From contig JAFVQW010000041.1 of NCBI GenBank assembly GCA_017504605.1, positions 10,391 through 74,390 on the forward strand: a stretch of 64,000 bases of DNA, read 5' to 3'. Source of the stretch: Clostridia bacterium (lineage in GTDB: Bacteria > Bacillota > Clostridia > Oscillospirales > CAG-272). The notes below the pieces were generated by a model. The model was not told where the DNA came from and did no database searches. It saw only the letters and a list, made by a program, of their open reading frames with translations. The position numbers and the translations under genes are program-made. Shown in pieces: positions 4,974 to 62,929 of the stretch; the stretch's first letter is position 1; each line of letters starts with the position of its first letter.

Positions 4974-5206
4974 GTTCCATATCCCCCTCGCCCTCGGGCG
5001 AGGGGATATGGAGTTATATTGCTCGCGCGGCGAGCAGTTATATTGTTGCTTCGCAACAGTTATATTCGCCTTGCGGCGAGTTAGATTAAAGTGAAAGTTG
5101 AAAACCGAGAGTTGAAGGTGACCGTATACATTTTCAATTTTCCGTTTTCCATTTTCAATTAAAATAGCGCGCACAGCGCGCATTCTATACACCCCGGGAG
5201 GTAATT
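4974..5206 (+). repeat. Conserved intergenic cassette, copy 1 (strong hairpin + AGTTATATT/hairpin array + AGTTGAA/TTCAATT arms + 5' leader of P2)
   Basis: Near-identical to 8389..8625 and related to 59524..59713. Contains a 15-bp stem at 4977..5011 (ccatatccccctcgcc/ggcgaggggatatgg). AGTTATATT occurs at 5012, 5036 and 5058 (AGTTAGATT at 5079), separated by mini-hairpins. A gcgcgc-aca-gcgcgc hairpin precedes the ribosome-binding site GGGAGG. Confidence 0.85.
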
Positions 5207-8383: not shown

Positions 8384-8388
8384 CGGCT

Positions 8389-8625
8389 GTTCCATATCCC
8401 CTCGCCCTCGGGCGAGGGGGATATGGAGTATATTGCTCGCGCGGCGAGCAGTTATATTGTCGCTTCGCAACAGTTATATTCGCCTTGCGGCGAGTTAGAT
8501 TAAAGTGAAAGTTGAAAACCGAGAGTTGAAAGCTGTGCCGTTTTTTGCACTTTCAATTTTCCATTTTCCATTTTCAATTAAAATAGCGCGCACAGCGCGC
8601 ATTCTATACACCCCGGGAGGTAATT
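8389..8625 (+). repeat. Conserved intergenic cassette, copy 2 (upstream of P3)
   Basis: Same hairpin (8392..8426), same three AGTTATATT/hairpin units and same leader as copy 1. Identity continues through the first 21 nt of the downstream CDS (atgaaaaaaatgagaaggctt). Confidence 0.85.
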
Positions 8626-11600: not shown

Positions 11601-11705
11601 TGCGATATGCTCGCGGCGACTCTTCGCCTCGGCAAGAGCGCGAGAAGGTACGAGGGCGCGGGACTGCCCGATACGCCGAGTATCGAGCCCGACTTCGAGT
11701 TCTAA
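8626..11705 (+). pseudogene. P3: P-family member interrupted by a frameshift near 8767-8775 (or an assembly error)
   Basis: The signal-peptide ORF 8626..8841 (MKKMRRLTSFVLVLALIAAVLA...) is in frame 1. Family homology (SYVGYESEKNYRYDLADGVFDGIALG...VDLSGHKMN) continues in frame 0, which opens at 8769 after a TGA at 8766-8768 and runs to 11705. The 8982 ATG is internal. Confidence 0.7.
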
Positions 11706-43824: not shown

Positions 43825-44718
43825 TCAGAGCGCCCTTTTGTTTGTGAAGGCACGCTTCTTGTATGCCACGGGGGTCATACCCGTATAGCGCTTGAAGGTC
43901 TTTGAGAAATAGTTCGGCGTGTCGAAGGCGAGCCGCTCGGCAATCTGCTTGACGGTGTAGTCTCCCTCGCGCAGATACTGCTTTGCCGCCTCTACCTTAA
44001 GCTTTGTAAAGTAGGCCATAACCGTCTTGCCCGTGGCGCGCTTGAACTCTCGGAATATGTAAGCGCGGCTGTATCCGACCGCCGCCGAGAGCTCGTCAAC
44101 CGATAGCGTGCTCTCGATTTTTTCTCTCATAACCGCGATGCAGTCGTCCACCGCCTTCGATTGCAGCTTCTCCGTGGGAAGGAAAATACTGTTGCTCCTG
44201 CCGTTTTCCGTCATTTGGCGCATAAGGCTGATGAGAAAAAGCTCAAGATAATTTTTTATCAGCTGCTGACCGCCGAGGGTGGGGTGCTCGAGAAGGTGCA
44301 GGCCGGTGTCCTCGGGAGTGGAGAAGGGAATATCGAAGGTACGCTTCGCCTCCTCTACGATGCTGTAAATGAAGCGCACGAGGCTCTTGTCGGGCCGCAC
44401 GCGGCAGCCCTCGAAAAAGCGCATAGCCTCGGACTTACATTCAAAGGAAATTACAAAGACGTTCGGCGCGCGTCGGCCGTTGGCGCTGTGCGCGTGAAAT
44501 TCTCCGGGCTTGTGAAAGGCAACCGTGCCCTCCTCAAGCGTGTATTCCTCGTCACCAGCCGTACAGAGAATGCTCTCCTTGTCGGCGTACACCAGCTCCC
44601 AGAAATCGTGTACCTCCCCCGAGAAGCTGAAATTCTTTTCAAATTCAAAGTAGTGTATAGTGACGATTTTATTGATTACAATGAGATTTTCGAGCTTGTG
44701 TTTGAAATATTTCTTCAT
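43825..44718 (-). CDS. AraC-family transcriptional regulator, divergent from the secreted-protein operon
   Basis: N-terminal cupin-like sensor and C-terminal AraC HTH (YIFREFKRATGKTVMAYF...PNYFSKTFKRYTGMTPVAYKK). Confidence 0.85.
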   Translation of the reverse strand: MKKYFKHKLENLIVINKIVTIHYFEFEKNFSFSGEVHDFWELVYADKESILCTAGDEEYTLEEGTVAFHKPGEFHAHSANGRRAPNVFVISFECKSEAMRFFEGCRVRPDKSLVRFIYSIVEEAKRTFDIPFSTPEDTGLHLLEHPTLGGQQLIKNYLELFLISLMRQMTENGRSNSIFLPTEKLQSKAVDDCIAVMREKIESTLSVDELSAAVGYSRAYIFREFKRATGKTVMAYFTKLKVEAAKQYLREGDYTVKQIAERLAFDTPNYFSKTFKRYTGMTPVAYKKRAFTNKRAL

Positions 44719-44913
44719 AAGGACAGTATATCACACCGCGAAGGAAAAAGCAAGCGTTTTATCCGAGGTGGGGTTCTGTTTCAAAAAAGTGACATTTTTT
44801 GATTTGAGGGTATTACAAAATGTAAATTTGACATAATCGACAAAATGACGGCTGACAATATGGTAAAAGTGACAACTTTTTTTAAAAAGGGGAAGAATTT
44901 TTGTTTTTTTACC

Positions 44914-44942
44914 TTGACAAGAGGCTTTTCGTTATTTAAAAT
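44914..44942 (+). promoter_or_regulatory. Sigma-A-type promoter of the 45099 operon
   Basis: TTGACA (44914-19), a 17-nt spacer, and TAAAAT (44937-42). This leaves a leader of about 150 nt. Confidence 0.55.
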
Positions 44943-45098
44943 AAAAGCACAAAGGATACGCGCCGAATATAAGGCGCGGAACAGTGACAGGCCGCGTTCG
45001 CCGCGGTGCGGCTCTCTCTGAGCCGTAGCGAAGCAAACGCCGAGATTTTTAATCGGCCTGGCATATTTTTTAATCACAACTCGTAAACGGAGGGGCTT

Positions 45099-48095
45099 AT
45101 GAAAAAAACGAACGGGAAGAGGATAGCACTTTTGGCGGTGACTGTGCTTATGTGTGTTGCCGCGGTCTTCACGCTTGCCACGTCTGCGGCGAGGGTGGGC
45201 AGTCTCGACGAGGCTAACCGACTTCTTGAGCAGGTGAAAAAGGTAGATATAGGAGAGGACAGCGCGGCGGCGTGCGAGGAAATGTCGAGCGCCATCTTCA
45301 ATCTTCGCTCCTACATACTTCGTATGCCTCTTGACGAGAGCGAGAGCGGCTATAACGAGTTCGCCTTCGAGTACGGCAAGGAGCAGTTCAGATATGCCGA
45401 GCTGATAATGAAGGTGTTCGACGAGGCGAAGGAGAAAACCGATGCAAGCGGCAATCCCTCCCCCGACGTTCCCGCGATGCAGAGCGCGCTTGACGACATG
45501 TTCGTGCTTCTTTCCGCCGATGATTTTATGATAGAGCGAGCGCTCGTTTATAATGAGGGTGAGGACGGAGTTTTCAGTGCGGATTACGATGCTCTTAACG
45601 AGAAATACGCCGAGGCTCCCTTCGGCTGCGTAGAGGCTATGCTTGACAATCTTCCGAACGAGGCGGATATGGCGGCGGCGCTTACCAACGCGGCGGCGTT
45701 CATCGAGCGAAACGGAATTAATATTAATGATGCAAGCAACGCGAGCATCAAGGAAAAGCTTTTTAACGCGAGACTTGCTTGCGCTAACGGGCTTCTCGAT
45801 GCGGTTGCCGACGATGCCGCGGGGATTGACGCGCAGAAGAACGGCGTGGCACTCCGTAAGCTCTCGGCGTTTATCAAGGCAAACCCTCTCGGTAAGGACG
45901 AGACCGAGGGCAGCGATTATATGACCTTTATGGCCGCGTATGAGCAGCGTATTGAGGTACAGAACGAGGCGCTTCGCGCCGCTCGCGAGGCTCTTACGTC
46001 CAAGGCGAGCTTCGGCGACCACTACGCGGGAGTGCTCTTCTTCAAGGGAACGGCCTTCGCCGTAGGAAATCAGTCTATAAACTATGCCGACGTTGACAGT
46101 GGCGCCGACGGCGACAACGAGTACTTCACCGTCAGATATGAGAACACAAAGGTGACCCATACTCATATAAGCACCGCGAGCGTTCCCGACAACAGTCGCG
46201 GCGTCGTCGTGGAGTTTGACTTTACCACCTTCGGCGATATGCCGAGCGGCTCGGTCATCATCGAGCGCGGCTCGTACACCTTCCCCGACGGACAGACCTC
46301 GGGAGTTGAGTTCTTTAAGATAAACAAGGACGGTGTCACGATAGGAAACACGACCGTCGCGGGGCTTGTACAGCCCGGCGAGTGGACGCACTTCACCCTC
46401 ATTATCGACCCCGATTGCAATGCTACGCTCTACGTCGATTACGTGCTTGTCGGCAGTGTGAGCCTTAAGGTAAGAAACTACGTCTTCGAGATTGGCGCTA
46501 TAAGAATGGGCGCACAGGCGGCCTCGGGTGAGTTCTCGATTGACAATTATATGGCGTATACCGGCACCTCGATACGCGACTGCGACTATCTCGCACAGCT
46601 CCGTGCCGATACCGAGGCCTACTTCGTACGTCTTTATCAGGGACTTAAGCACAGGCTTACCGACCACAGGGTGCTTCTCAACATCTACGACGAGTGCGCG
46701 GCGCTCGTTAACGAGTTCACTCCCGAAACCGAGGAGGGCATAGCGGCCGTCGAGGCCTTCCGCGCTATGAGCCGCTCCGACGTGCAGGATAAGGCGCTCG
46801 AGAATGCGAGAGAGAAGCTCGCGGAGAAGATAACCGCAATCAAGGATAAGCCGCGCGACAGCTCGACCTCTAAGGAGCGCATAGCGATGCTCTCCAACCT
46901 TGATAAATTCCTTGCCTACAACGAGGGCATTATGAGCGAGACCGAGAACGACGAGCTCTACGTTGCGATACAGAAAATAAAGAAGCAGCTCGACGACGAG
47001 GACTTCGTAGCCCTTCTCGTTACGGCTGTGAACGACTTCTTCGCCGAGAGCGATGCGTTCAAAATTAAAGCAAAATACGATATGGCAAAGAAATACATTA
47101 CCGAGGCCGAGAGCGACGAGGAGATTATGGCTATGCGCCGTCTCTCGGGCTTTGCGAGCTTCTCGGTTGCGTACGAGCGCTTTAAGACCGAGGGTCCTAC
47201 CCACTACGGCGACCTCGTCAGCATTGACAACACCGAGATTTTCGTGTCTATGATGAAATACGTTGCGTCGCTTATTTCCGACCCCGATTGGAAGACCAAG
47301 CATTACGACGAGATTGACAAGTACATAATGCTTGCCTCCGAGCGCGTGGAGGATGGAGCCTACGACGAGCTTTACAGCGGCTTTAGCGAGGCCTACGAGG
47401 TATATCTCGAGTACGCTCACTACTTCTTCCTCGAGCGTCAGCCGGGATATATTACCGAGCTTCGCGGCCTGCTTGATAAATGCATAGCCGCGGTTCACCC
47501 GGTTGAGAAGGCGGGCGTGATCGCGTACATCGGCGACTATATAGACAACACCGACCTTGATTTTGAGAACTCCGAGATTATAGCACTCGTTGACGAGTAC
47601 GAGGAGCTTCTCGCGACCCTTGACGGTGCCGACGGCGCGTACGAGGAGCTTCGCACGGAGTATACCGAGAAATTCATTGAAGCCGTGGCGCTTATTGCCG
47701 AGGCGGAGGGATACGCCGCTCGCCGAGCGCTCGCGGACGAGGCGCGTGTATATTATACGCACATTAACAGAACGGGCGACGGGGTCTCGGCCGCAGAGGC
47801 AGAGTACCTTGAGATTGAGGCCGCTCTTGGCGCGGTGGAGGCTGTTGCAAAGAGATTTATCTCGGAGTATGCGCTTTTAGCCTCTGCACGTACTAACGAG
47901 GAGCGCTTCGCCGCACTCGTTACCCTCTCGGCTCTTTACGCCGAGGGAATAGAGACCGAGGTGGCGGGTGCCGCCGCGGCAATTGACGGATACAATTCCG
48001 CAATCGACGATATGAACGAATTTATAAACAAGCATAACGGCGAGCTTGATGAGCTGCTTCGCGCATCGCTTGCAGCGCTCGTCAAGGCTAAATAA
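45099..48095 (+). CDS. 998-aa secreted, mostly alpha-helical protein with a central LamG/concanavalin-like insert; function unknown
   Basis: Ribosome-binding site ggagg and signal peptide MKKTNGKRIALLAVTVLMCVAAVFTLATSA. Flanks are rich in A, E and L. The central segment YFTVRYENTKV...GEWTHFTLIIDPD...FSIDNYMAYTG looks LamG-like. Confidence 0.8.
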   Translation: MKKTNGKRIALLAVTVLMCVAAVFTLATSAARVGSLDEANRLLEQVKKVDIGEDSAAACEEMSSAIFNLRSYILRMPLDESESGYNEFAFEYGKEQFRYAELIMKVFDEAKEKTDASGNPSPDVPAMQSALDDMFVLLSADDFMIERALVYNEGEDGVFSADYDALNEKYAEAPFGCVEAMLDNLPNEADMAAALTNAAAFIERNGININDASNASIKEKLFNARLACANGLLDAVADDAAGIDAQKNGVALRKLSAFIKANPLGKDETEGSDYMTFMAAYEQRIEVQNEALRAAREALTSKASFGDHYAGVLFFKGTAFAVGNQSINYADVDSGADGDNEYFTVRYENTKVTHTHISTASVPDNSRGVVVEFDFTTFGDMPSGSVIIERGSYTFPDGQTSGVEFFKINKDGVTIGNTTVAGLVQPGEWTHFTLIIDPDCNATLYVDYVLVGSVSLKVRNYVFEIGAIRMGAQAASGEFSIDNYMAYTGTSIRDCDYLAQLRADTEAYFVRLYQGLKHRLTDHRVLLNIYDECAALVNEFTPETEEGIAAVEAFRAMSRSDVQDKALENAREKLAEKITAIKDKPRDSSTSKERIAMLSNLDKFLAYNEGIMSETENDELYVAIQKIKKQLDDEDFVALLVTAVNDFFAESDAFKIKAKYDMAKKYITEAESDEEIMAMRRLSGFASFSVAYERFKTEGPTHYGDLVSIDNTEIFVSMMKYVASLISDPDWKTKHYDEIDKYIMLASERVEDGAYDELYSGFSEAYEVYLEYAHYFFLERQPGYITELRGLLDKCIAAVHPVEKAGVIAYIGDYIDNTDLDFENSEIIALVDEYEELLATLDGADGAYEELRTEYTEKFIEAVALIAEAEGYAARRALADEARVYYTHINRTGDGVSAAEAEYLEIEAALGAVEAVAKRFISEYALLASARTNEERFAALVTLSALYAEGIETEVAGAAAAIDGYNSAIDDMNEFINKHNGELDELLRASLAALVKAK

Positions 48096-48113
48096 TAAGA
48101 AAGGAGAGAAAAA

Positions 48114-51100
48114 ATGAAAATCAGAAAAACGAGCAGCAGAATACTGTCCTTTTTACTTCTCCTTTCTATCATAGCATCTCTGTTTTCGGTTTTTGCCTAT
48201 GCCGCGACTGACGAGAGTGTCGGTACAGCCGAGAGTGCGGAGGGAGCAGGACTCAGCGTAGTCTATAACAGAGGCTTCGCCGAGGGTTGGGATTACACCA
48301 ACGGACTTACCCCTTATATCGAGGGTGACGTTTCCTACGGTATAGAATACGTGAAGATGAGTGCCTCGAGGTACGAATACTATCTCAACGTTGAGGTAAA
48401 CGGAGAGAGCGAGGGCTACCTTGAGATTGATGCGGGGGATAATCTCCCCGCCTCGGGCAAGCAGTTCCTTACCTTCGATGCCCGCGCCGAGGAGGATGCG
48501 GATATTGTCGGAGCCGTAATTGCTATGACGGCGGGTGAGGGCTCGGCCTCGGAGATGATGCATCTTCTGTCCTACGTCGACGGCGAGATTTACTCGCTCG
48601 GAAGGAAGGTAGGAGAGGCTGACGGCAGCTGGCAGCACTTCTTATTTGAAATTGATTACGACTACGAGGGCGAGAGCGAGAGAGAATTTCTCGTAACCCT
48701 CTATCTTGACGGCGAGGCCTTCACGAGCGTACAGAGCGCGGGCAAGGGCGGCTTCGGCATCGGCAGCGTGCTTATCGGCGCAGGCGCCGACGAGGACCGC
48801 ACGGGCGGCTCCTATCAGCTCGATACGGTTGCGCTCTACCACGGAGTAGACGCCCCGACCGATATTCCGAACGGAAACTTCGGCACGGCGGTAGACAGAA
48901 CTCTCGTGCGCAACTTTACCATTCTCGGCCTCGGTGAGAGGACCGACGACCCGAACGTGCTCTCGGGCACTCCCGCGCTCGACCGTATCAGCACCTCGAG
49001 CGTCAGCGTGCTTTACAACCGCCACTATGGCGAGGGCTGGGATTGGAGCAACGGCTTCAACAGCCTCAGCACGAGCAAGCTCGCGAGCAATCTCGCCGAG
49101 CTTCGCAGCGATTACAGCTTTATAGTCAACAAGAGCGAGAACTTCCTCAACCATTATCTTGCGATTGAGAAGAAGAACGACACGCTCGGCTACGTATATC
49201 TCGCACCCGAGTCAAACGACAACTCGCCGCTTATAGCGAGCACCTCGGGTAAGGTGTTCATCGAGTTTGATATGAAGACCTCGGATAACAACGGCACGAT
49301 GCTTCTCACTCTTATAACCGACCCGAAGTCAGAGGGTGACACGCTCGTCTACACCGATAACGGAGAGCTCTATCTGCTCGGCCGGAAGGTTGGTACCGTC
49401 GGCGGCGAGTGGCTCCGCATTTCGATAATGCTCGATTTTGCGGGCATATACCGCGACGGCTCCTACAGTGCCGAGGCGCATTACGGCTCCGAGGGCGGGG
49501 TCGTGTACTCCTCCTATACCGCTACGACCCCGACCGTTACGAATTTGAGATTCGGCACGGCGGATAAGAAGGCCGGCAACACGGGCGACTGGTTCGGCAT
49601 CGATAACCTCGCGGTTTATTGGGGTGCCTCTACCTTCGTCAATCTCCCGAGTGACGAGCTCGGTGAGCTCGTTAATACGAGACTTGAAAAGGATTTTGCA
49701 CTCTCCGTCGAGGGCGAGTCGCTTACGGTGAACGAGATTTACAATGCCTCGCTTACTATGAAGGTCGGCTCGAGCTTCGCATATCTTCTCGGTAAGCAGG
49801 TGAAAATCTACGAGACCGAGAGCGGCGAGCGCTACGGTGCACCCGTTAAGGTTGACGGCAAGGTTCTCCTGCCGCTTCAGTCTATTATCGACTTTACGGG
49901 AGCAACGCTCATTCCTCACGATGACTTCAAGAGCTTCGAGGTCTTCCTCGGCTCGACACTCTCGTACCTCACGCTCGGCTCGACCGATGCTATAATCGGC
50001 GGTAAGCGTGTCAGCCTCGCGGCGGCTCCCGCGGTGGTTGAGGCGGGCGAGGGAATGTCCTACGTGGTTATCGGAATGGACGACCTTGAGGCTATTTTCC
50101 CCGGCTTCTACGTGGTTTGGGACGATTGCGGACTTCTCACGGTTACCGAGTATAAGAACTTTATAAACAGAAATATGAGCGGCGCGTTCGATACTATGGT
50201 ATCGATTATGCGTAAATTCCTCTACGATTACGTGGACGGGGATACCGTTTACGAGATGGCGAAGGAGCACACGAACAACTTCGACCACCCCTACCTGTTT
50301 GCTAATCAGGATAAGTTCGACGAGCTTCGGAGAGTATATTACGCCGCACCCGGCGACGAGGACTTCAACGCCGAGCTCGCGGGCTATATGCAGGTTCGCG
50401 TTGACCGTGCCGACGAGCGCCTCGGAGCGCTTGCCGAGCTTGACGAGACGGGCAGATACCTCGGTGTTAAGCCCGAGAAGATTCCCGTGAACACCAACTA
50501 CGTCACCGAGCCCGGCAACAACGGCTACGACGTCGGCGGACGACTTAATCTTATTTACCGTGACGATTATACCGGCGCTCTTGAGGATATTGCCTTCGCA
50601 TACCAGGTTACGGGCAATACCGTCTACGCCGAGTTCCTTCTCGACTTCATCGGCTACTTCTGCGACGACGAGCTCTGGCCTCACTGGGGTCCCTCTCACT
50701 TCCTTAACGTCGCGGAGAGCGTTATACACATGGCGATAGCCTACGACTGGTGCTACGACGCGTGGATGGAAATAAGCCCCGAGCAGACTATGCACATAAG
50801 AGCGAAGCTCTATGAGAAGGGCGGCTATCACGGCTACAACTCGATGCTTACGACCGTTTGCCCGAAGGAATTTATATCGGCTAAGGGCTACCGCTGCTAC
50901 AACTACCACATAACGACTAACAACTGGAACACGGTATGCTCGAACGGTATGGTGGTCACGGCGCTCGCGCTCTTTGACATTGACACCAACGCCGATATGG
51001 ATAAAATCAATAACAACGAGGCCCTCTCGCAGATGAAGGCGCTCGTTTCGGGCGATATCCGAAGCCTTGTCAACTACGCGATGCATTACTACCAGTTCGA

Positions 51101-52658
51101 CGGCTCCTACTCCGAGTCGGTCGGATATTGGGATGCCTCGACACAGGGCTATCACCAGATGACCGCGGTGCTTGAGTCGGTTACCGGCTCCACCTTCGGC
51201 TACCTCGATACCTGGGGTATGGATAGGACCTACTATTTCGCTCTCTCCTTTGAGTCGAGCGACCACTACACCTGGCCCTTCCACGACGACTCTGCGAGCG
51301 AGCTGTCTACTCCGCTTATGATGTATTATTCCACGGCCTCGGGCGACAGCGTTCTCGGTCAGATAAGGAAGATACAGCTGGCACAGGGTAAGACTCCGAC
51401 GATATGGGATGCGATTTACTATCAGGATGCCGATGCAGACGGAGATATTGAGCTTCCCCTTACCTTCACCGCATCGAAGATAGAGGCCTTCGTGGCCAGA
51501 ACCTCGTGGGAGAAGGGAGCGCTCTTCACGGGAATTATGGGCGGATATAACGGCGAGGGCCACGCTCATATGGACTCGGGCAACTGGGTTTACTACAACA
51601 AGGGCATTAACTGGTTTAAGGACCTTGGAAGCGACAACTACAACGTATATAACTATTGGAGCTCCTACCACGTATACAGAAGGAGCGCCGAGGGACACAA
51701 CCTCTTTATAATGAACACATCCTCCTACGAGTACGGTATGGACCTTCAGGGCACGGGCTACCTCACCGACACACTGGTTAACGAGCACGGCTCCTACGCC
51801 ATCATTGACCAGTCCGAGGTATACGGCGGCTCGAAAATGGTTAACTATGCTCGCCGCGGTATGCTTATTACCAACGACAACAACACCGTTGTTATTCAGG
51901 ACGAGGTACAGTTTAAGACCATGACCAAGTCCTATTGGATAGCACACGTGAACGTTGCGCGAAGCAACGTGATGGGCTTCGTTGAAAAGATTGAGGTTTC
52001 AGCGGATAAGAAGGTGGCCTATCTCCACGGTGTCAACCGGAGCAAGGGCGAGAGATACACCCTGCGCGTAACGCTTATCACGGCGGTTCTCGGTGCGGGC
52101 TTCGAGGTCTGGGATGCGGGTATGAGTGACTTTGCGCTTCCCGGCACCTACCGCCCCGGCTACTCCGAGTCTATGGGCGGAGAGCCTCAGACGAGTAACG
52201 TCGGTGCACAGAGGCTCGTCGTAGAAATAAAGGACAGAACCGAGGTTAAGATAGCCGTGGCTATCGAGCTTGTAGACAGAGAAAACGAGCTTGAGACCGG
52301 CTACAAGATGACCGATATGAAGAAGTGGGCGCCCGCGGCCGACACTCGCGGATATATAGCAGATGCGGTCGAGACCCGCTCCTCTCACGTAAACGGCGTT
52401 TATACCAACGTATCTCAGCTCCAGGCCTTTGAACCGAGCACTCTCCTCGGCGTGAATATGGAGGAGGCCTACAAGAAAATGGCTAATATAGGTTACATAG
52501 TAAGTAAGAACCAGAATATAGTCAACGTTGATTATTACAAGGAGCTCCTTGTAACCTACTACGACTGCCGTGCGACATACGACGGCTTCATTAAGAATGC
52601 CAATGCGGCGGCGGCCACCGCACGCGAGCTGGTCGGTGAGCTCTTCGGCTCCCGATGA
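48114..52658 (+). CDS. 1514-aa secreted heparinase II/III-like polysaccharide lyase with two LamG-like modules and a copper-amine-oxidase-N-like domain
   Basis: Signal peptide ...SLFSVFAYA. Two LamG-like modules (GSWQHFLFEIDYD..LDTVALYHG; GEWLRISIMLDF..GIDNLAVYWG) and a VKVDGKVLLPLQSIIDFTGA stalk. DHPYLFANQDKFDELRR is toroid-like. GEGHAHMDSGNWVYYNKGINWFKDLG and AEGHNLFIMN are heparinase II/III C-domain-like. Confidence 0.8.
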   Translation: MKIRKTSSRILSFLLLLSIIASLFSVFAYAATDESVGTAESAEGAGLSVVYNRGFAEGWDYTNGLTPYIEGDVSYGIEYVKMSASRYEYYLNVEVNGESEGYLEIDAGDNLPASGKQFLTFDARAEEDADIVGAVIAMTAGEGSASEMMHLLSYVDGEIYSLGRKVGEADGSWQHFLFEIDYDYEGESEREFLVTLYLDGEAFTSVQSAGKGGFGIGSVLIGAGADEDRTGGSYQLDTVALYHGVDAPTDIPNGNFGTAVDRTLVRNFTILGLGERTDDPNVLSGTPALDRISTSSVSVLYNRHYGEGWDWSNGFNSLSTSKLASNLAELRSDYSFIVNKSENFLNHYLAIEKKNDTLGYVYLAPESNDNSPLIASTSGKVFIEFDMKTSDNNGTMLLTLITDPKSEGDTLVYTDNGELYLLGRKVGTVGGEWLRISIMLDFAGIYRDGSYSAEAHYGSEGGVVYSSYTATTPTVTNLRFGTADKKAGNTGDWFGIDNLAVYWGASTFVNLPSDELGELVNTRLEKDFALSVEGESLTVNEIYNASLTMKVGSSFAYLLGKQVKIYETESGERYGAPVKVDGKVLLPLQSIIDFTGATLIPHDDFKSFEVFLGSTLSYLTLGSTDAIIGGKRVSLAAAPAVVEAGEGMSYVVIGMDDLEAIFPGFYVVWDDCGLLTVTEYKNFINRNMSGAFDTMVSIMRKFLYDYVDGDTVYEMAKEHTNNFDHPYLFANQDKFDELRRVYYAAPGDEDFNAELAGYMQVRVDRADERLGALAELDETGRYLGVKPEKIPVNTNYVTEPGNNGYDVGGRLNLIYRDDYTGALEDIAFAYQVTGNTVYAEFLLDFIGYFCDDELWPHWGPSHFLNVAESVIHMAIAYDWCYDAWMEISPEQTMHIRAKLYEKGGYHGYNSMLTTVCPKEFISAKGYRCYNYHITTNNWNTVCSNGMVVTALALFDIDTNADMDKINNNEALSQMKALVSGDIRSLVNYAMHYYQFDGSYSESVGYWDASTQGYHQMTAVLESVTGSTFGYLDTWGMDRTYYFALSFESSDHYTWPFHDDSASELSTPLMMYYSTASGDSVLGQIRKIQLAQGKTPTIWDAIYYQDADADGDIELPLTFTASKIEAFVARTSWEKGALFTGIMGGYNGEGHAHMDSGNWVYYNKGINWFKDLGSDNYNVYNYWSSYHVYRRSAEGHNLFIMNTSSYEYGMDLQGTGYLTDTLVNEHGSYAIIDQSEVYGGSKMVNYARRGMLITNDNNTVVIQDEVQFKTMTKSYWIAHVNVARSNVMGFVEKIEVSADKKVAYLHGVNRSKGERYTLRVTLITAVLGAGFEVWDAGMSDFALPGTYRPGYSESMGGEPQTSNVGAQRLVVEIKDRTEVKIAVAIELVDRENELETGYKMTDMKKWAPAADTRGYIADAVETRSSHVNGVYTNVSQLQAFEPSTLLGVNMEEAYKKMANIGYIVSKNQNIVNVDYYKELLVTYYDCRATYDGFIKNANAAAATARELVGELFGSR

Positions 52659-52675
52659 GGTCGAAAGGAGAGAAT

Positions 52676-55600
52676 ATGAAAAGATACGGTAAAATTTTGG
52701 TTTTACTTATAGCTCTCGCGGCGTTGCTGACGGCGGTCTTCCCCGCCGTCAGCGCGGAGGAAGGCGTTGCCTCCTCCGCACCCGCCGCGCCGAGCTATCT
52801 GCCCCCGAGCGTGACGGTCACGGCCGCAGATGCTCTTCAGGGCGCAACGTACGTAATCTACGAGAACGTGCGTGACTTTAACGACGATATTGAAAACGGC
52901 GTTATCGACGGCATGATTGACGGCGAGAACGTGCTCGTAACCCGCGGAACCGAGACGACTATGGCGCTCCCCGCGTCGGGCTACGTCTATCTTCTTGCCG
53001 ACGTAACGGTGCCGCAGGTGTTTAAGCTTTCGGGCGGTGCCGTGCTACAGATTAACTGCGGCCGTAAAAAGCTCACCTTAGGCAAGGTGCGTAACGTTAT
53101 CAGCGGCTCCTCGCTTGCGATATTCAACGGAGCGCTTAACCCCTCAGCGTGGGCTACCGAGGGAACTCTCGAGACCACGGATACGGCGGCGTATATCGCA
53201 TTCCGTGACCTCGATATCACGACCAACGACGGATACGGAAGCGCGAGATTTATCTGGGCGAGAAGCGCCGTGTACGGATACTTCGAGAACCTAACCTACG
53301 ACTCCTCGGCCGGAAGAAAGCGCTTTATCTGGCTCGCGAGCAACGGAACGCAGGACTACACCTTCAAGAACGTAAATATAACTCAAAACGCTAAAAACCC
53401 CGACCCCGTGGTTGAGCTTGCGGGGCAGGCGTGTAACGTTTCGCTCTATTTTGATAAGGATACGAAAATTAATTCCAAGCTCTTTAACTCCGCACTTGCT
53501 GCGGGCTCGCAGCTCTTGGTTTCTGCCGAGGTCGGCTGTAAAATAAAAAACAACGACTGGATACTCGACCCCTCCCTCGTGTCGACTAACCTCAAGCTTG
53601 ACTTTATAAGTCCCTTGGGCGTTTCCGCGAGGTTCGTGGACGTCGGCGGAATCTTCGTTCTTACCGAGGCAATCTCCGAGATTTTATGGCACGGCGTTGA
53701 CGGTGCCCCCATTGGAGAGAAGATTTCCATATTCGAGGGTGACGTGATAGTTCCTCCCGAGCTGCCGAAGACGGTCAGCGAGAAGGAGGGCGGCGGATAC
53801 ACCGTTACAGAATACGTGTGGGCGAGAGAGATTGGCGGCGAGGCCGTGGATATTGACTCGCTTCGCGGCTCGGTTAACCTCTACGCCGTGGCGGGCGAGC
53901 CGCTCGATGCTACCCTCGCTCTTCTCGGTGCGGACGGTAAGCTTGTCGACGCATGGATTACCGACAGACTCACCAAGGATACCGTGTCAAATATGCCTGC
54001 GGGCTCGACGCTCCTTATGCTCGCCGACCTCTCGGTTGACTACGGCGCTTCCGCAGATATGACCTTCGACAGCTATATGGGCGATATCACCGTCGACCTC
54101 GGCGGTCACACTCTGACCCACGTCAGCTACGACGGTAAGACCGACGTCGCCTGGGCTACACCTGCGGCGGGCGTTACGGTAACGCTTCAAAACGGTACTG
54201 TTAATATTTCCAACAGCGGCGGCAAATACGGTACGCTCGTCAGCGGCGAGGGCGAGGGAACAATTAAATTCCACCGTGTTGACATCGTTTCGGCGGGCGG
54301 CCCCGCGATTGTAAATCTCAATGCGGGCAGCTTCATAATGGAGCTTGGCAGAATTGATACGAATGGCAGCGGTACCTACAGACCCTTCCGAATCGGAAAC
54401 GGTGCTACGAAGGCGGTTACCGCATCCCTCGAGCTCTACGGAGTATATCACAGCGGTAAGGGCGGCGACGTCTTCGTCTCTCTTTACTCGGCAAGGAACG
54501 CTAATAATAATATAAAGGTAGTGGTTGGCGAATACGAGGGCACCTACAGCTGGATTAAGACCGGCTATATGCTCCAGTTCTCTCAGGCCAACATCGGCTC
54601 GGCCTCCAAGTACGAGTTTATCTATGACGGAGCCTACGTCTACGGCGGCAACGCCCACGTAACGGGCAGGCCCAAGTGGGACAGTAAGGCGGTCGATGCG
54701 GCACTCGATGAGAAAAACATCAGCTTCTACTTTGACAACTTCATCGGCATGAGACCCGAGGCCGACTATTTTACGAGCACTACAAGCGTGCTTCTCACCA
54801 CCGCGAGCATCAATATTGACAGAGCGCTCACGACGGTCTACAAGGGCAGCGAGGTTTATACCGTGGGGGGACTACTCGACCCCGACTTCGGCTTGATGTC
54901 GAGCCTCACGCTTTACTCCGACCTCGACCTTAACCTTTTTATTCCCGTTGACGTTGTTGGCGGAATAAATACTATCTCGGCCGACGGCACTCTTATCTTC
55001 GACCGCTCGCGCGCCGAGGACTATCCGATTTACGTCGATAGAAGGACGGGAGAGAGATATTACGTCGCGAGCGTGCGCGACATCGCTCCCAACCTTGCGG
55101 CGAAGCAAATAGAGCTTTCCATAAACTACTCGATGTGCTTTACCTACGCGGGCGAGAGTGCAGAGACCGAGCTTAATGCGACCGTCCTGCGCAGCTTCTC
55201 GGTCGTTGATTACATAGAGACGCTCTTCGACACCGAGGGTGTCAGCGAGACGGCACTCGATACCGCACGCGCTCTTAGCGCATATATCATCGCTGCATAC
55301 GATTACTTTGATGTCGACTCGATATTCCACGTCGATACGTGGGAAAAGCTTTTAGACATCGCACTCGAGGTTGGTGCGGAGGAGTTCGTCGGATCCTTTG
55401 GCGAAATTCACGCGCCCGAGGGCGATACCGACTTCGGCCCCGAGGCAGGGGTCACCGCACAGTTCGGTATCGGAACGGTGACGCGCCTCGAGCTTAGCTT
55501 CGGCGCGGTGCGCGACTACGAGATATACTCGGGTGCTAAGCTTATTGCCGAGGGCAGAGCCGACGGCGTTACCCTCGAGCTTCATGCATACGAGCTCTGC

Positions 55601-55777: not shown

Positions 55778-55788
55778 GTTTAAAAAAG

Positions 55789-56170
55789 CCTCCACTGTTC
55801 TAAATCCAAGCCGACGAAGGAGGCTTGGTATGGCATCACGCGTTAGCGTGTATGGAATCCCGACTTCGTCGGGTATGGCATCAGCCGAGGGGCTGTATTT
55901 CGTCGGCTTGATTCCATGCCGTCTGAGACGTATTCCATACCGCCACAAGTGGCGGATTCCATCCACGGCTTCGCCGTGATTTGAAGAAAACTAAAGCTTA
56001 TAACCTCCACTGTTCTAAATCCAAGCCGACGAAGGAGGCTTGGTATGGCATCACGCGTTAGCGTGTATGGAATCCCGACTTCGTCGGGTATGGCATCAGC
56101 CGAGGGGCTGTATTTCGTCGGCTTGATTCCAAGCCGTCTGAGACGGATTCCATACCGCCATGGGCGGACT
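55789..56170. repeat. Two tandem copies of the type A hairpin-punctuated repeat element
   Basis: Copy A is about 55789-55987 and copy B about 56004-56170. Both start cctccactgttctaaatccaagccgacgaaggaggcttggtatggcatc and carry 3 forward GTATGGMATC units and 2-3 reverse GATTCCATAC-like units. They are homologous to 376..647. Confidence 0.85.
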
Positions 56171-56224
56171 GCTCTAAAAATGCATAATGCAGAATTCATA
56201 ATGCATAATGCATAATTAATTAAT

Positions 56225-56237
56225 TTAGTTCGCAAAT
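56225..56237 (+). promoter_or_regulatory. Conserved TTAGTTCGCAAAT motif upstream of P5
   Basis: Identical to 690..702. Preceded by AT-rich ATAATGC repeats (56180-56215). Confidence 0.3.
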
Positions 56238-56272
56238 CCCAAATATAAAACAATCAAGAAAGGAAAAGCAAG

Positions 56273-59200: not shown

Positions 59201-59395
59201 CCCGCATACGCTCTTACCGACGTGCTTACCATAACCGTTGGTGAGGCGACTGCTACCTTCTCCTTCGGTGAGTATGTAGAGTTCCTTATGACCGACGACA
59301 ACCCCGACGAATATCAGGATGCCGTGCTCGTTGCAATGTACGCTTACGGCGAGACTGCAAAGGCGCTCAAGGCAACCCTGCCCGAAAATGCATAA
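56273..59395 (+). CDS. P5: 1040-aa secreted protein of the P family (mosaic of P1-like ends and a P4-like centre)
   Basis: Signal peptide MKKISKILAVLLMLCLVLTGIVLTVSA/DEP resembles that of P1. The centre (WATPAAGVTVTVKNG...IDIVSAGGPQIANLNAGSFIMELG...YEGTYSWIRTGYLLQFS) resembles P4. The C-terminus (TAAFQIGTVSKLYVTFPAGSEW...LPAYALTDVLTITVGEATATFSFGEY) resembles P1. Confidence 0.9.
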   Translation: MKKISKILAVLLMLCLVLTGIVLTVSADEPAAASAPAAPDFLPESVTATPDASLSGYAYVVYASEADFNADLDNGVIDGMVDGTSVLTATGAATTDGTEAVLTMPTTSAYVYLLQNVNTGATAFTTKGITLQINFGGKTLTFNNSNNIQGTSAVAGKYAFFNGTFVDGFNGAHGTFRTGYLINIALRDLNVSSTRTWGNSRTFALESNANVYAEDVTVDYTKSTKGLFTINTTGFANITLKNLDYAGKTASNGARVIFAINTFSSATLYADADCSFKGQLFTCTASPAAPLAATFENGVKFDNDAYNSLSSQHFASSFVEDGSTFIESSDADFSWIVEQPAATVSWYDENGTLLGTTSHGVGATPSFEYAPPADSASIEGDKVYLLGNGGWSTTDGGTATEITAITSGETERSYYCVLAKVEAAVAIFEDDTCTKLISASSEKKLSGEVISTLPEGAYVRAYTDLDAVGNFESYLGSITVDLGGNKLTHAGTYWATPAAGVTVTVKNGTIDIAGTYTKVINGAAAGTLKFHKIDIVSAGGPQIANLNAGSFIMELGSIDTTGARYYRPFFIGQGATEAVTASLEFYGVYHHGEWGGGSGDIFVTLQSKAGANNDIKVIVGDYEGTYSWIRTGYLLQFSTANLGAESKYEFVCDGVYLYGGNAHVTGKPTWGGLTSADLDKQNVSFYFDNFIGTRPDYFTHSDSALLTTATVNVKRFEMVYTDGTDEETGEPIWDEDSAGGAFMPPEDLGILANLTLYSDFRLNFYIPVDGDVVRLAYGDALLFDKANGIGTDGLTSDGKYYKVSLAGIAPNTAAASVELRVGLVESDVFATRDGATEELTYYYYLTAKYSVVNYVSDLLAGTTDEIQVNAMKAIIAYVVSAYDYFFEESSTEDAKYELLLSLYDSCGVEDFIADFYESAVAPDNDTDFAEGTGVTAAFQIGTVSKLYVTFPAGSEWTVKGANVDKSGTGGECVINLPAYALTDVLTITVGEATATFSFGEYVEFLMTDDNPDEYQDAVLVAMYAYGETAKALKATLPENA

Positions 59396-59408
59396 GGAGG
59401 GACGAAAA

Positions 59409-59519
59409 ATGAAAAAATATGAATCCCCCGAAATCGTAATTACGAACGTTAATTCCTCGGACATTATTACCGCATCCTACGGTACTACCCCTTGGCTTAA
59501 CGCGGAATTCGAATGGTAA
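59409..59519 (+). CDS. Conserved 36-aa peptide MKKYESPEIVITNVNSSDIITASYGTTPWLNAEFEW (second copy)
   Basis: AAGGAGGGA ribosome-binding site, 13 nt after the P5 stop. Same length, start and stop as 4856..4966, with a mix of synonymous and conservative differences. Confidence 0.7.
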   Translation: MKKYESPEIVITNVNSSDIITASYGTTPWLNAEFEW

Positions 59520-59523
59520 AACC

Positions 59524-59713
59524 ACGTTCCATATCCCCTCGCTCTCGGGCGAGGGGGATATGGAGTTATATTGCACCTTCGGTGCAGTTAGATTGAATTG
59601 AAGGTTGAAAGCCGAGAGTTGAAGGTGACCCTGTGCATTTTCAATTTTCCGTTTTCCATTTTCAATTAAAAAAGCGCTATATGCGCAATCTATAAAAGCC
59701 TATGGAGGTTCTT
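59524..59713 (+). repeat. Conserved intergenic cassette, copy 3 (diverged, shorter) upstream of P6
   Basis: Same big hairpin (59529..59563). Only one AGTTATATT/hairpin unit (gcacc-ttc-ggtgc). Same gttgaa...ttttcaattttccgttttccattttcaatt arms. A gcgc-tatat-gcgc hairpin replaces gcgcgc-aca-gcgcgc. Confidence 0.8.
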
Positions 59714-62700
59714 ATGAAAAGAAAGATGAAACTTGGAGCTGTAATTCTCGCGCTCTCGCTCGCACTCTCGTCACTGCTCGCCGTGGCTATCCCGTCGGCC
59801 GCCGTGACCGAAGAGACTCCCGCTCCCGCGGATAGCACCGAGAGACTCGAGCCGACGGGTGCACTCGAGGGATATTACTACGCCCTGTATAGCACCGAGG
59901 ACGATTATCTTTTCGATATCGCCGACGGAGCGCTTGACGGCGTCGGACACGGCGACTACGGCGAGGAGGAGACTCTTATCGATAAGACTGTCGGTAAAGC
60001 GAGTCCCCTTATAGCGCTTCCCGCCGCGAGGAGCTTCTATATTCTCGTTCTTTCTAAGGACGTCGAGATTACCAATAAGGAGGTCGCGCTTGCCTCTAAT
60101 CGCGTGTGCGTGCTCGACCTTAACGGATATAATCTGCATATAACCACGACCACGAGCGCCTTCACCACGGTCAGCGTAGGCGATACCAGGACTCAGCTTA
60201 CCTCTGCCGACTTTACCGTCAAGAACGGTACCATATATAACGAAAGCACCAGGGCGGGCCAGATATTCTCGGTCCGTATGGGCTCCTTCTTGACCTTCGA
60301 GGACGTCGTGATTGATGGCAGAGATGGGGGTGCTGCCTCCTTCGTTCAGGACTTCGGCGGCGATATAACCTTCAGAAGATGCGATTATTATGCACCTTCG
60401 AATGCGTCACTTATAGACGTCAATTCGACACCCCTTGCCGAGTACGACAACTGCGTCTGCAATGCCTGTCAGTCGCGCCCGAACATTTCTACGCTTCTTC
60501 CGTTTAAGAACACCTACACCTTCGACGGCTTTAATTACTACGGCGACGACAACCCTCAAGGTATAACCTACGTCCGTCCGCAGTCGCACGCGAACGACGA
60601 CGGATTGGGCAAGCCCCTCGTAGACGTTATCATCAAGGGCAACTCCTCCTTCGTCGGCCAGGTGTTCGGAATACATAAGCACGGCGAGGGCACGAGGCTC
60701 AACGTCCAAATAGAGGAGGGCACTCGCTTCGACCGTAAGCTTACGCTCCCCAAGCTTAATACAGATAAGATAACCGTTTACGTTGCGACCTACGTAGACA
60801 AGGCGGGCAACGAGATAGATGAGCCCGTCTTCGGCTCCTCGGGACTTCCCGAGTATCCCTATCAGCTCGGCACGGGACTCTGCAAGGTAAGCTGGTACGG
60901 CTTCGACGGCAAGCTCGTCGACGTAACCGAGCTCGTAAAGGGCGCTTATCCCGTCTATACCGGCTACGTAGCTCCCGCAACCCAGAAGCCCTCCATGAAC
61001 GAAGAGGGCGAGCCCGTTATAAAGGAGCACGACTATTGGTCTCTTACCGAGGGTGGCGAGCCCCTTCCCGGCACGCCTCTTGATTCCGATACCGCCGCCT
61101 TCTACTCGGTGCCGAGGGACGTTCATCCGTCCGTTGCGATATTTGACGCTGAGGGCAAGCCTACCGATGCCTCGGTTACTCCCGTTCTCAGTGCAGAGCT
61201 GCTCGGCGCTATGACAGACGGCGCGCTCGCACGCATTTACACCGATGCTTATATAGCAGATGCACAGAGCCTGGTCGTTAATGCGAGCGTTACTCTTGAC
61301 CTTAACGGCTACACGCTCTCCCTTATCACTAAGGACGGCGAGACCGCGGCCTTCCACACCCCCGCGGCAGGGCTTACCCTTACCGTTGAGGACGGAACTA
61401 TTTATTCCGAGGGCGCTGTGGCAATCGCCGGCGCGGGTGACGGCACTGTGAGACTTAATAACGTAGAGCTTAAGTGCTTCAATTCCTCGGCTATTGACCT
61501 CTCGGTCGGCAGAGTGGAGCTCTACGGCGGTATGCTTAACGTCGATACGCTGAAGAAGGGCGTGTCGGGTATTCTTCTCGGCAAGGCGGGCGGAAGCTGC
61601 TCGCTTGCTATCTGTGGCACCGTTATCGACGTTATGGGCGTCGGTAAGGAAAGCTACGCTATAGAAATTAATTCTCTTCCCGAGGAAGGTGAGAGCTCGG
61701 TTATCTCGATAGAGCTCGGAGCGGCGGACGGCGTTTCGCCGAGACTTCTCGGCGGCAGCCTTATCTACGTTGCCCCCGCCTCGGAGAGCACCCTTCGCGC
61801 GAGCCTCACCGTTGACAGTGCTGATCTCGCCTCCTTCGGAACTCTCACTACCTTCGCCGACGGCGTGTCGCCGAGCGAGCTGCCGGTTACCCTCGTCGGT
61901 ACGGCGCGCATCAGCCGCCAGCCTGACGGACACACCGTTCTCGCGGAGGACGGTAGCTTCATCGTCAGCCTTGAGAGCGACGAGAACACTCTCGCTATCA
62001 CGAACGCTAATCTCACGGCCTACAAGAGCTTCAGCGTTTGGCGCGACCTTATTATGAACGTCTATATTCCTGTCGATAGCGATATCGACAGGGTTACCGT
62101 GAACGGCACGGTCGTATTCGATTCGAGCCTCGCGGCCTTCTACGAAACCGCGGTGCACGACGGCGTGCGCTGCTACCTCGTCAGATACACCGAGCTTAAG
62201 ATTAACCGCGCGCTTGACGGCATCAAAACCGTGCTCGCGGTTGACAGAGAAGACGTTGCAATTGCCGCTCACGAGGAGTTTGACCTTCTCGACTATTCCG
62301 CATCGGTTATATCCGGCGATTACGTAGACGAGGCAAAGGCACTTATTCACGCTATCCTCTCGTACGTGAAGGCGGCGTACGGATACTTTAACCCCCGCCT
62401 CACCGAGAGCGACACGGCGGCTCTTCTTAGACTCGACGAGCTCCTCGACAGCGAGATATTCGGCAAAATCGACCTCGCTACCGAGAAAGCGGGAGAGAGC
62501 GACGCATCTCTTTCCGAACTGTCCGATTATATTTCGAGCGTGCAGCTTCGCGTTGCGGGTGGCGTATATCTCACCCTCAACCTGACCGAGGCGGGCAGGA
62601 GTGCTCCGCTTACCGTCAGTGACGAGGACGGTGTGATCTTCGAGACCGCGGGTGTCGGCACCGACAGCGTTGAGATAGAGCTCGGACATCTGAGTATCGC

Positions 62701-62929
62701 TGACGTCCTCACCGTGAGTGTCGGCGAGCAGAGCGGCAGCTTCAGCCTCGCGGCCTACAGAGCGGCGCTTGTCGGCGTATGGGGCGACGAGCTCCAGGGA
62801 CTTTCCGACGTGCTTCTTGCACTGGAGAGGCTCGGTGTAGCCTCGGAGACCTACGAGGCCCGTATGGGCGGCGAAATGGAAGACGTTGGCGGCGATACGC
62901 CCGTCATCGATGCACCGCTAAAGCGCTGA
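59714..62929 (+). CDS. P6: ~1071-aa secreted protein of the P family (most divergent member)
   Basis: Ribosome-binding site ggagg 5 nt before the ATG at 59714. Signal peptide MKRKMKLGAVILALSLALSSLLAVAIPSAA. Motifs: YYALYSTEDDYLFDIADGALDG, VLDLNGYNLHIT, VSWYGFDGKL...YWSLTEGG, TLDLNGYTLSL, HTPAAGLTLTV, IMNVYIPVDS. Confidence 0.9.
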   Translation: MKRKMKLGAVILALSLALSSLLAVAIPSAAVTEETPAPADSTERLEPTGALEGYYYALYSTEDDYLFDIADGALDGVGHGDYGEEETLIDKTVGKASPLIALPAARSFYILVLSKDVEITNKEVALASNRVCVLDLNGYNLHITTTTSAFTTVSVGDTRTQLTSADFTVKNGTIYNESTRAGQIFSVRMGSFLTFEDVVIDGRDGGAASFVQDFGGDITFRRCDYYAPSNASLIDVNSTPLAEYDNCVCNACQSRPNISTLLPFKNTYTFDGFNYYGDDNPQGITYVRPQSHANDDGLGKPLVDVIIKGNSSFVGQVFGIHKHGEGTRLNVQIEEGTRFDRKLTLPKLNTDKITVYVATYVDKAGNEIDEPVFGSSGLPEYPYQLGTGLCKVSWYGFDGKLVDVTELVKGAYPVYTGYVAPATQKPSMNEEGEPVIKEHDYWSLTEGGEPLPGTPLDSDTAAFYSVPRDVHPSVAIFDAEGKPTDASVTPVLSAELLGAMTDGALARIYTDAYIADAQSLVVNASVTLDLNGYTLSLITKDGETAAFHTPAAGLTLTVEDGTIYSEGAVAIAGAGDGTVRLNNVELKCFNSSAIDLSVGRVELYGGMLNVDTLKKGVSGILLGKAGGSCSLAICGTVIDVMGVGKESYAIEINSLPEEGESSVISIELGAADGVSPRLLGGSLIYVAPASESTLRASLTVDSADLASFGTLTTFADGVSPSELPVTLVGTARISRQPDGHTVLAEDGSFIVSLESDENTLAITNANLTAYKSFSVWRDLIMNVYIPVDSDIDRVTVNGTVVFDSSLAAFYETAVHDGVRCYLVRYTELKINRALDGIKTVLAVDREDVAIAAHEEFDLLDYSASVISGDYVDEAKALIHAILSYVKAAYGYFNPRLTESDTAALLRLDELLDSEIFGKIDLATEKAGESDASLSELSDYISSVQLRVAGGVYLTLNLTEAGRSAPLTVSDEDGVIFETAGVGTDSVEIELGHLSIADVLTVSVGEQSGSFSLAAYRAALVGVWGDELQGLSDVLLALERLGVASETYEARMGGEMEDVGGDTPVIDAPLKR

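Follow-up and report, generated by a model that had tools for sequence, protein, structure and literature searches.

The 64,000-nt stretch of DNA analysed here, hereafter called the window, comes from an uncultured ruminant-gut Clostridia bacterium (NCBI label 'MAG: Clostridia bacterium', MAG standing for metagenome-assembled genome) and holds two copies of a gene cluster coding for giant proteins with signal-peptide-like N-termini, one at 43825-62929 (cluster 2) and one at 3-11705 (cluster 1). Cluster 2 joins a divergently transcribed AraC-type regulator to genes for a mostly helical 998-aa protein (gene 1), a 1514-aa protein resembling lyases of polysaccharide lyase family 35 (PL35; gene 2), three large paralogous proteins (P4, P5 and P6) and a 36-aa peptide. 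The cluster is built mostly from undescribed parts and is probably a surface apparatus for the processing of sugar polymers. The more specific explanation that we favour, and to which we would give close to an even chance, is that it encodes an AraC-induced secreted apparatus which degrades and binds an acidic polysaccharide and which this organism carries in two diverged copies.

The open reading frames (ORFs) that the sequence-only reading had listed for cluster 2, namely those of the regulator, the 998-aa and the 1514-aa protein, P4, P5 and P6, are all present, and frames of 1000-1500 codons with hundreds of homologues lie far beyond what chance could produce. The same reading had taken genes 1, 2 and P4 for one operon, arguing from an 18-nt spacing between genes 1 and 2 and an ATGA overlap of the stop codon of gene 2 with the P4 start. 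The 18-nt spacing is as described; the overlap is not, as the ATG at 52655 has no ribosome-binding site and P4 most likely starts at 52676, at an ATG which is preceded by AAAGGAGAGAAT and from which the 1033-aa product of NCBI would be read. Genes 1, 2 and P4 are therefore spaced by 18 and 17 nt, so that the spacing is still operon-like even without the overlap. This tight coupling is limited to the first three genes, and both P5 with the peptide gene and P6 are set apart by structured intergenic regions of 0.2-0.5 kb. The reported recurrence of the arrangement at 3..11705 is real. The first copy begins upstream of the window, which opens inside the lyase gene of cluster 1 (end at 368) and continues with P1, P2 and P3. 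A further assembly of this organism, L001, which derives from a ruminant metagenome, has cluster 1 complete, with a divergent AraC gene, a 1125-aa helical protein, a 1529-aa lyase, P1, a peptide gene, P2 and an intact P3. The two clusters are diverged duplicates within one chromosome.

Gene 2 bears on the proposed role in polysaccharide degradation. In phmmer searches of the PDB the core of its product matched the PL35 lyases GAGase VII (8KHW; E values of 1e-27 to 3.5e-28, about 440 residues aligned), GAGase II (8KHV; 5e-22 to 5e-23) and a chondroitinase (9O3Q; 1e-18 to 2.5e-19), and is thus homologous in sequence to this family. The catalytic triad of PL35, which serves in beta-elimination at uronic-acid residues, consists of an Asn that acts as neutraliser and of a Tyr and a His that act as acid/base, and its mutation abolishes the activity of PL35 GAGases (PMC12088678). 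Residues N936/N937, Y1005 and H1150 of the 1514-aa protein correspond to Asn187, Tyr241 and His397 of GAGase VII when a 14-residue chain offset is allowed for, and they are invariant in both lyase paralogs; the surrounding motifs NNWN, (S/G)YW and GHxHxDxG are kept as well. Because of the PDB sequence matches together with the conserved triad we read gene 2, as far as its sequence can tell, as encoding an active uronate-polysaccharide lyase of the PL35 type. The protein departs from the PL35 lyases of known structure in that it has about 2.5 times their length, carries two LamG-like modules, a Cu_amine_oxidN1-like domain and a C-terminal extension of 230 aa besides the core, and is a secreted Gram-positive protein encoded outside any Sus-type polysaccharide utilization locus (PUL). 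The kinship is remote, the homologue from a Eubacteriales MAG (locus L003) being only 29% identical to gene 2; judged from the PDB matches, the lyase may belong to PL35 itself or to a neighbouring family. By these sequence comparisons the lyase is a new and unusually long member of a known family.

The domain composition proposed for this protein, two LamG-like modules, a copper-amine-oxidase-N-like stalk and a heparinase II/III-type core, stands in part. Cu_amine_oxidN1 passes its Pfam cut-off narrowly (25.2 versus 24.2 bits) and the core is of the heparinase II/III type in its PL35-like form, whereas the Pfam model Hepar_II_III_C stays just below its cut-off of 24 with 23.3 bits (29.4 bits in the L003 homologue) and the LamG-like modules are likewise below threshold. 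The two N-terminal modules are tandem duplicates of each other (hhalign, 99.7%), and a PDB search with the N-terminal half of the lyase came back empty. For Laminin_G_3 (PF13385, gathering threshold 27.6 bits) the scores are 26.4 bits in the helical protein, 22.8 in its paralog, 18.6 in a module from L003 and 14.4 in lyase module 1, and hhalign relates the lyase modules to that of the helical protein with a probability of about 85%. Every one of these scores is sub-threshold; the near-threshold value of the helical protein and the relatedness of the modules nevertheless make the label 'LamG-like' plausible for both proteins.

The helical protein itself has no match in the PDB by sequence or profile, and its two paralogs (998 aa in cluster 2, 1125 aa in cluster 1) are 30% identical. 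In the cluster-1 protein (L001, 1373-4750) the N-terminal 330 residues hold about five helical repeats of about 55 aa, each ending in (F/Y/L)(E/A/G)CA(E/R)xxLxE, and the cluster-2 protein has fewer and degenerate ones; the number of repeats could matter if the protein were a scaffold. The regulator matches Pfam HTH_18 (3e-21) and HTH_AraC (4e-17), both above cut-off, with a weak match to AraC_binding, and with its C-terminal double helix-turn-helix it belongs to the AraC/XylS family. Regulators of the AraC type are best known for sugar-responsive control.

The sequence-only reading had been unable to place P4, P5 and P6 in any named family. This judgement was borne out, as neither sequence nor fold comparison yielded a match in Pfam, NCBIfam, PHROGs or the PDB. 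More precisely, the six P proteins, their separate modules and five distant relatives gave no Pfam, NCBIfam or PHROGs match, and PDB sequence and profile searches with P4 and with the profile of the six paralogs were empty. The six proteins align end to end at 17-41% identity, with P3 and P6 forming a divergent subtype. Exhaustive profile searching of 1.84 billion representative sequences retrieved 681 relatives at E<=1e-3, 69 of them at E<=1e-30; those source clusters that were looked up are all metagenomic, of one to three members each and without an informative name, and where members of the family do carry a name they come from Clostridia MAGs only. A word-indexed protein search with P4, the six-paralog alignment or 22 C domains returned only the query or nothing, a result to be read with the fact that it missed the paralogs too; a genome scan with P-family motifs found no relative. 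An N-terminus resembling a signal peptide is present in 118 of 154 family representatives, and an LPXTG-like motif is absent from the last 60 residues of all 156 family sequences, those of the window included. By eye, that is, by a basic N-terminus, a hydrophobic stretch and an AxA-type site, all large proteins of the locus have signal-peptide-like N-termini, in agreement with the Sec signal peptides that had been claimed for them.

Sub-profiles divide the P proteins into four parts in the order N-R-M-C, of which N and M cross-match each other. R is a beta domain of about 100 aa with the pattern W-Y-D-x-x-G ... G-W, which occurs in up to about 20 copies in other proteins and which we take to resemble the Listeria-Bacteroides repeat; Pfam gave no match. 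Arrays of 6-20 tandem R domains are found in six unnamed metagenomic representatives (P0049, P0125, P0135, P0146, P0148 and P0108). An AF2 model of P4, for which the six paralogs served as alignment (pLDDT 69, pTM 0.40), is nearly all beta, with long strands in N and M that recur every 26-28 residues. When this model was compared with the PDB by Foldseek no match reached E<=1e-3, the top ones having E>=5e-3 and TM<=0.21 over the full alignment; these non-significant matches are mainly right-handed beta-helix enzymes (tailspike depolymerases, PL6, AlgG, fucoidan lyase and K1 lyase) as well as small NEAT- or Ig-like sandwiches. The model thus suggests that N and M are likely two beta-helix modules. 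In the spacing of their rungs and in their top fold matches the P proteins are like the beta-helix lyases, epimerases and tailspikes (PL6, AlgG, FdlA, phage tailspikes), yet they differ from these in lacking any Pfam beta-helix match and conserved catalytic residues, and the matches themselves are not significant.

The C domain, of about 285 aa, is the most widely shared part of the P proteins. In 117 of 128 representatives no more than 40 residues separate it from the C-terminus, and more than 100 other secreted proteins also end in it. A Pfam analysis of 29 long C-domain proteins identified as its partners a GH2 beta-galactosidase with carbohydrate-binding modules (CBMs), SASA, SGNH and DUF4886 esterases and metallophosphatases, and in addition BspA-type leucine-rich repeats (LRR), LVIVD, F5/8C, NPCBM, Big_4/5 and CBM96. 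Such a pattern of fusions is what a targeting, anchoring or assembly module would show, rather than a catalytic domain. Its model is of better quality (pLDDT 82, pTM 0.76) and shows a beta-sandwich, a helical bundle, a second sheet and a terminal helical hairpin; it has no significant Foldseek match in the PDB or BFVD, and its profile found nothing in the PDB. MHC-like structures at the top of the Foldseek results were disregarded for their TM of less than 0.2. In being almost always last, and in being appended to unrelated secreted proteins within one lineage, the C domain is like the SLH, CWB2 and dockerin modules and the C-terminal domain of the type IX secretion system (T9SS). It resembles none of these in sequence or fold, however, and is much larger than a dockerin or the T9SS domain, so that the analogy is a functional one and is drawn from its distribution. 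A polymorphic toxin was rejected as an explanation of the P proteins, whose C-termini are the conserved and not the variable part.

The 36-aa peptide gene is where the sequence-only reading had placed it, between P5 and P6, and a second copy that had been missed follows P1. The two copies differ at 20 of 111 nt, and nine of the codon differences are synonymous and seven are not, a skew that fits a translated peptide gene. Moreover, in four metagenome contigs the peptide is called as a gene directly after P5, and it always stands behind a P5-like gene. On these sequence grounds we consider the peptide gene to be real. It follows only genes of the P1/P5 type and one gene of L003, and not P2, P3, P4 or P6. 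The peptides of the window and of L003 share KYE[ST]PxIxV...SDIITxSxGxxP. Metagenome variants of the L003 lineage differ mainly in the last seven or so residues, whereas the two variants of the window lineage carry single or double substitutions elsewhere than in the tail. No NCBIfam or Pfam peptide family matched, and a literature search for the N-terminal sequence gave no result. Two metagenome stretches retrieved with the back-translated peptide motif held no matching ORF and were read as chance.

Do these components occur together elsewhere? A lyase-motif scan of 185,579 species genomes yielded 60 loci, whose six-frame ORFs were searched with hidden Markov models of each locus component. 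Only one of the 60, L003, has any component besides the lyase and carries a C-domain protein, and the lyase of this locus is also the sole full-length homologue among them (29% identity over residues 1-1513). The genes of L003 encode, in this order, a divergently transcribed AraC regulator, a lyase of 1803 aa in which Cu_amine_oxidN1 and Hepar_II_III_C are recognised, a secreted 1374-aa protein that combines a C domain (E 1e-14) with two LamG-like modules, and a 33-aa peptide, MLKYETPSIEVEDMDPSDIITVSTGDSPLVGIE, whose gene has a ribosome-binding site and a terminator of its own; the locus lies between aro and pls housekeeping genes. Two distant lineages therefore share a core made up of AraC regulator, lyase, C-domain protein and peptide. 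Outside this organism none of the 60 loci yielded the helical protein, the search for it being confined to these loci and not extended to the whole collection. The AraC protein of the window is only 21% identical to that of L003, and orthology of the three AraC regulators was rejected on this ground. Co-occurrence of the components across genomes is thus borne out for the core in the distant L003 and fails elsewhere, in that the other loci lack the C-domain gene and none has the helical protein. Because the link of lyase and P proteins is not general, the helical protein is found in none of these loci and the regulators are not orthologous, we put forward the notion of one system as a hypothesis.

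The locus had been set apart from classical PULs, cellulosomes and sortase-adhesin loci, and this holds: as had been stated, no transporter, LPXTG, SLH or dockerin was found in the locus proteins by Pfam and pattern searches, and dockerin, cohesin and SLH gave zero Pfam matches in any of them. With Gram-positive PULs, which combine a regulator, an ABC transporter and secreted carbohydrate-active enzymes, the locus shares a divergent AraC gene beside secreted glycan-active proteins with binding modules. It differs from them in that there is no transporter or downstream catabolic enzyme in or beside it and in that P1-P6 and the helical protein, all of unnamed families, make up most of its coding capacity. 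The proposal of an undescribed extracellular system thus stands for the P family, the C domain, the helical protein and the peptide, all undescribed in the libraries searched, but not for the centrepiece, which is recognisable as a PL35-like lyase. Because this enzymatic centrepiece is an ordinary PL35-like lyase, the locus is of a known general kind, a regulator-linked secreted battery for glycan processing.

How might such a battery work? The AraC regulator would sense a breakdown product and induce the unit of helical protein, lyase and P4 together with the downstream P genes. Outside the cell the lyase would cleave a uronate-containing polymer, with its LamG-like modules as a guide, and the P proteins may be beta-helix proteins that bind or cleave glycans with diversified specificity. 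The C domain might hold proteins at the cell surface or assemble them into a complex, as a functional analogue of SLH, dockerin or cell-wall-binding modules, and the peptide of 33-36 aa might be an accessory of the C-domain protein that precedes it. Several observations weigh against this scheme. Pfam scans of the flanking ORFs revealed no uptake transporter, unsaturated-uronate hydrolase or uronate catabolic gene adjoining either copy of the cluster; a C-domain or P-like gene is missing near 59 of the 60 lyase-homologue loci; and the assignment of beta-helices comes from a medium-confidence model and from Foldseek matches that are not significant (E>=5e-3, TM<=0.21). Furthermore, when 15 full-length homologues are compared, conservation in N and M falls almost entirely on turn residues (Gly, Asn or Asp); neither module shows a group of conserved polar residues that looks like an active site, and the P proteins may for this reason not be enzymes. 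Finally, the C domain is acidic (pI about 4.3), and nothing ties it directly to the cell wall.

Some of these points would suit a different explanation better, in which the P proteins form a variable surface coat or adhesin, that is, non-enzymatic beta-solenoid fibres displayed by means of the C domain, and the lyase clears or remodels a glycan layer, possibly the organism's own capsule, rather than serving in feeding. Such fibres would let the cell adhere to feed particles, to the mucus of the host or to other microbes, or escape phages. We hold this to be possible, if rather doubtful. The prevalence of turn residues among the conserved N and M positions and the lack of a catalytic-looking cluster speak for it, as do the strong divergence of the paralogs (17-41% identity) next to a conserved C domain, the fusion of this domain to a BspA-type LRR adhesin-like protein and the failure to find catabolic or transport genes nearby; also, glycosyltransferase genes and a gene for a Wzy_C/O-antigen-ligase-like membrane protein at 24457-28688, away from the locus, may belong to surface-polysaccharide synthesis. 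Then again, most identifiable partners of the C domain are glycan-acting enzymes, the genes are presumably under the control of a regulator from a family with an established role in sugar responses, and the LamG-like modules together with the lyase indicate glycan processing. A degrading and binding apparatus is the reading that we prefer over a coat.

That the small peptide is the point of the locus, a secreted signal or the precursor of a modified peptide (similar to a pheromone or to a ribosomally synthesized and post-translationally modified peptide, RiPP) with its N-terminal two-thirds as leader, its variable tail as the active part and the giants as co-regulated cargo, is in our estimate very unlikely. 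About the first 28 residues are indeed conserved across two distant lineages, the variation in the L003 lineage falls mostly into the last seven or so (not so in the window lineage), and the codon differences between the two copies are skewed towards synonymous ones. But no gene for a maturase, an RRE, a protease, an exporter or a peptide receptor is found in or beside any of the three loci, the putative core has neither Asp/Glu at positions 7-9, as a lasso peptide would, nor any Cys for thioether links, no NCBIfam or Pfam peptide family matches, and P2, P3, P4 and P6 are not followed by a peptide at all. A lasso or RRE-dependent RiPP precursor was accordingly rejected for want of the Asp/Glu and of a maturase or RRE gene in the three loci. 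Y4-x-x-P7-x-I9 and a Thr two residues before a possible cleavage site are presumably similar, by eye only, to the YxxPxL...T(-2) leader motif that RRE domains read. Even less can be said for a prophage or phage-like remnant with the P proteins as tailspikes or receptor-binding depolymerases, an origin with next to no probability: the non-significant fold matches of P4 do include the tailspike depolymerases 4ru4, 8opz and 6f7k, but all proteins carry Sec-type signal peptides as judged by eye, there is no PHROG match, tblastn of P5 against 50,697 phage records and 72,556 plasmids came back empty, BFVD yielded no significant match for the C-domain model, and the flanks are housekeeping operons without phage genes. 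We regard a prophage origin as effectively refuted by the signal peptides, the failed PHROG and tblastn comparisons and the housekeeping flanks.

The features of both clusters and their coordinates are compiled in Table 1.

Table 1. Features of cluster 2 and cluster 1 with their positions in the window
Feature	Position	Strand	Remarks
AraC/XylS-type regulator, 297 aa	43825..44718	-	divergent from locus genes
Promoter-like site TTGACA-17-TAAAAT	44914..44942	+	upstream of gene 1; 11 of 12 consensus positions; consensus match only
Secreted, mostly helical protein, 998 aa (gene 1)	45099..48095	+	central LamG-like module at about aa 330-490; Laminin_G_3 sub-threshold
Secreted PL35-like polysaccharide lyase, 1514 aa (gene 2)	48114..52658	+	two tandem LamG-like modules, Cu_amine_oxidN1-like domain, core at about aa 800-1280, C-terminal extension
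P4, 1033 aa	52676..55777	+	alternative ATG 52655; paralog alignment; architecture N-R-M-C
Structured intergenic repeat, 215-nt unit, two tandem copies (99% identical)	55789..56160	+	upstream of P5; family D2
P5, 1040 aa	56273..59395	+	C-terminal part 81-87% DNA-identical to that of P1
Peptide gene, 36 aa, MKKYESPEIVITNVNSSDIITASYGTTPWLNAEFEW	59409..59519	+	ribosome-binding site AAGGAGG; hairpin after
Near-perfect hairpin after peptide gene	59526..59566	+	family D15; also at 4974-5014 and 8389-8429
P6, 1071 aa	59714..62929	+	divergent 'type B' paralog, counterpart of P3; start has ribosome-binding site
3' end of cluster-1 lyase paralog (1529 aa in L001)	3..368	+	44% identical to the 1514-aa protein
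P1, 1366 aa	742..4842	+	extra N-terminal N-type module; paralog alignment
Second peptide gene, 36 aa, MKKYESPEIKITSVEASDIITVSYGSTPWLNAGFEW	4856..4966	+	after P1
P2, 1058 aa	5207..8383	+	paralog alignment
P3, frameshifted in this assembly	8626..11705	+	intact, 1026 aa, in the assemblies L001 and L002

The start of P6 is most likely the one listed. In P3 a 1-nt deletion near 8749 (GCTGAG-ACAGC here, GCTGAGTACAGC in L001) splits the gene into an ORF for the signal peptide and a 907-aa ORF; since P3 is intact in two other assemblies, the break is either an assembly error or a strain-specific pseudogene.

The intergenic regions of the locus contain recurrent structured elements. The 215-nt repeat folds at -80.7 kcal/mol (z = -3.8) and has no Rfam match, as indeed no Rfam family matched anywhere in the window. 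Related copies at 380-645, upstream of P1, include a 21-nt sub-repeat in three successive copies (family D10), and the copy number of the 215-nt repeat varies between assemblies of this organism. The element could belong to the 5' untranslated regions of the P1/P5 pair or be a small mobile repeat. The GC-rich D15 hairpin (CCATATCCCCTCGC...GCGAGGGGGATATGG) follows both peptide genes and P2, and together with the hairpin next to it folds at -37.7 kcal/mol. The sequence after the first peptide gene (5015-5116) is 99% identical to that after P2 (8429-8530). This near-identity of the two spacers suggests that P2 may have arisen by a duplication which kept the spacer and lost the peptide gene.

By Pfam scan the neighbours of the two copies are arg, pheST, trk and rha genes, and between the copies lie trkHA, a rhamnose catabolism operon and housekeeping genes including rnr, uvrC, pheST and an arg operon. 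Because housekeeping genes separate and flank both copies, the locus is chromosomal. The rhamnose operon (14986-19474) codes for a cupin-AraC regulator, an FGGY kinase, the L-rhamnose isomerase RhaA and a class II aldolase. Its position between the copies is a possible hint at rhamnose in the target polymer; trkHA intervenes between it and cluster 1. Downstream of cluster 2 an ORF on the minus strand (63255-63881) encodes a very acidic 208-aa protein without Pfam match, in whose C-terminal part about nine GLPE repeats are encoded by a 12-nt tandem repeat (63238-63405).

Much of the carbohydrate-degrading capacity of gut Clostridia, in ruminants and humans alike, resides in uncultured lineages, and the largest of their secreted proteins are unannotated. 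The locus described here ties a PL35-like lyase with an intact triad to three undescribed protein families and to a conserved micro-peptide, an association whose recurrence is limited to two independent lineages. By analogy with known display modules one may go further and picture the C domain as a new lineage-specific module for surface display or complex assembly, the peptide of 33-36 aa as its dedicated partner, which would for example donate a strand, anchor the protein or control its release, and the helical protein as a possible scaffold. This would amount to an undescribed Gram-positive organisation of extracellular glycan degradation; we consider it unlikely in this full form. A role of the C domain in anchoring or assembly would account for the retention of enzymes at the surface without LPXTG motifs, SLH domains or dockerins, and the domain would then provide a sequence handle on the repertoire of surface enzymes in metagenomes. 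Should it not serve in anchoring, the locus would still give targets for new Pfam and CAZy families.

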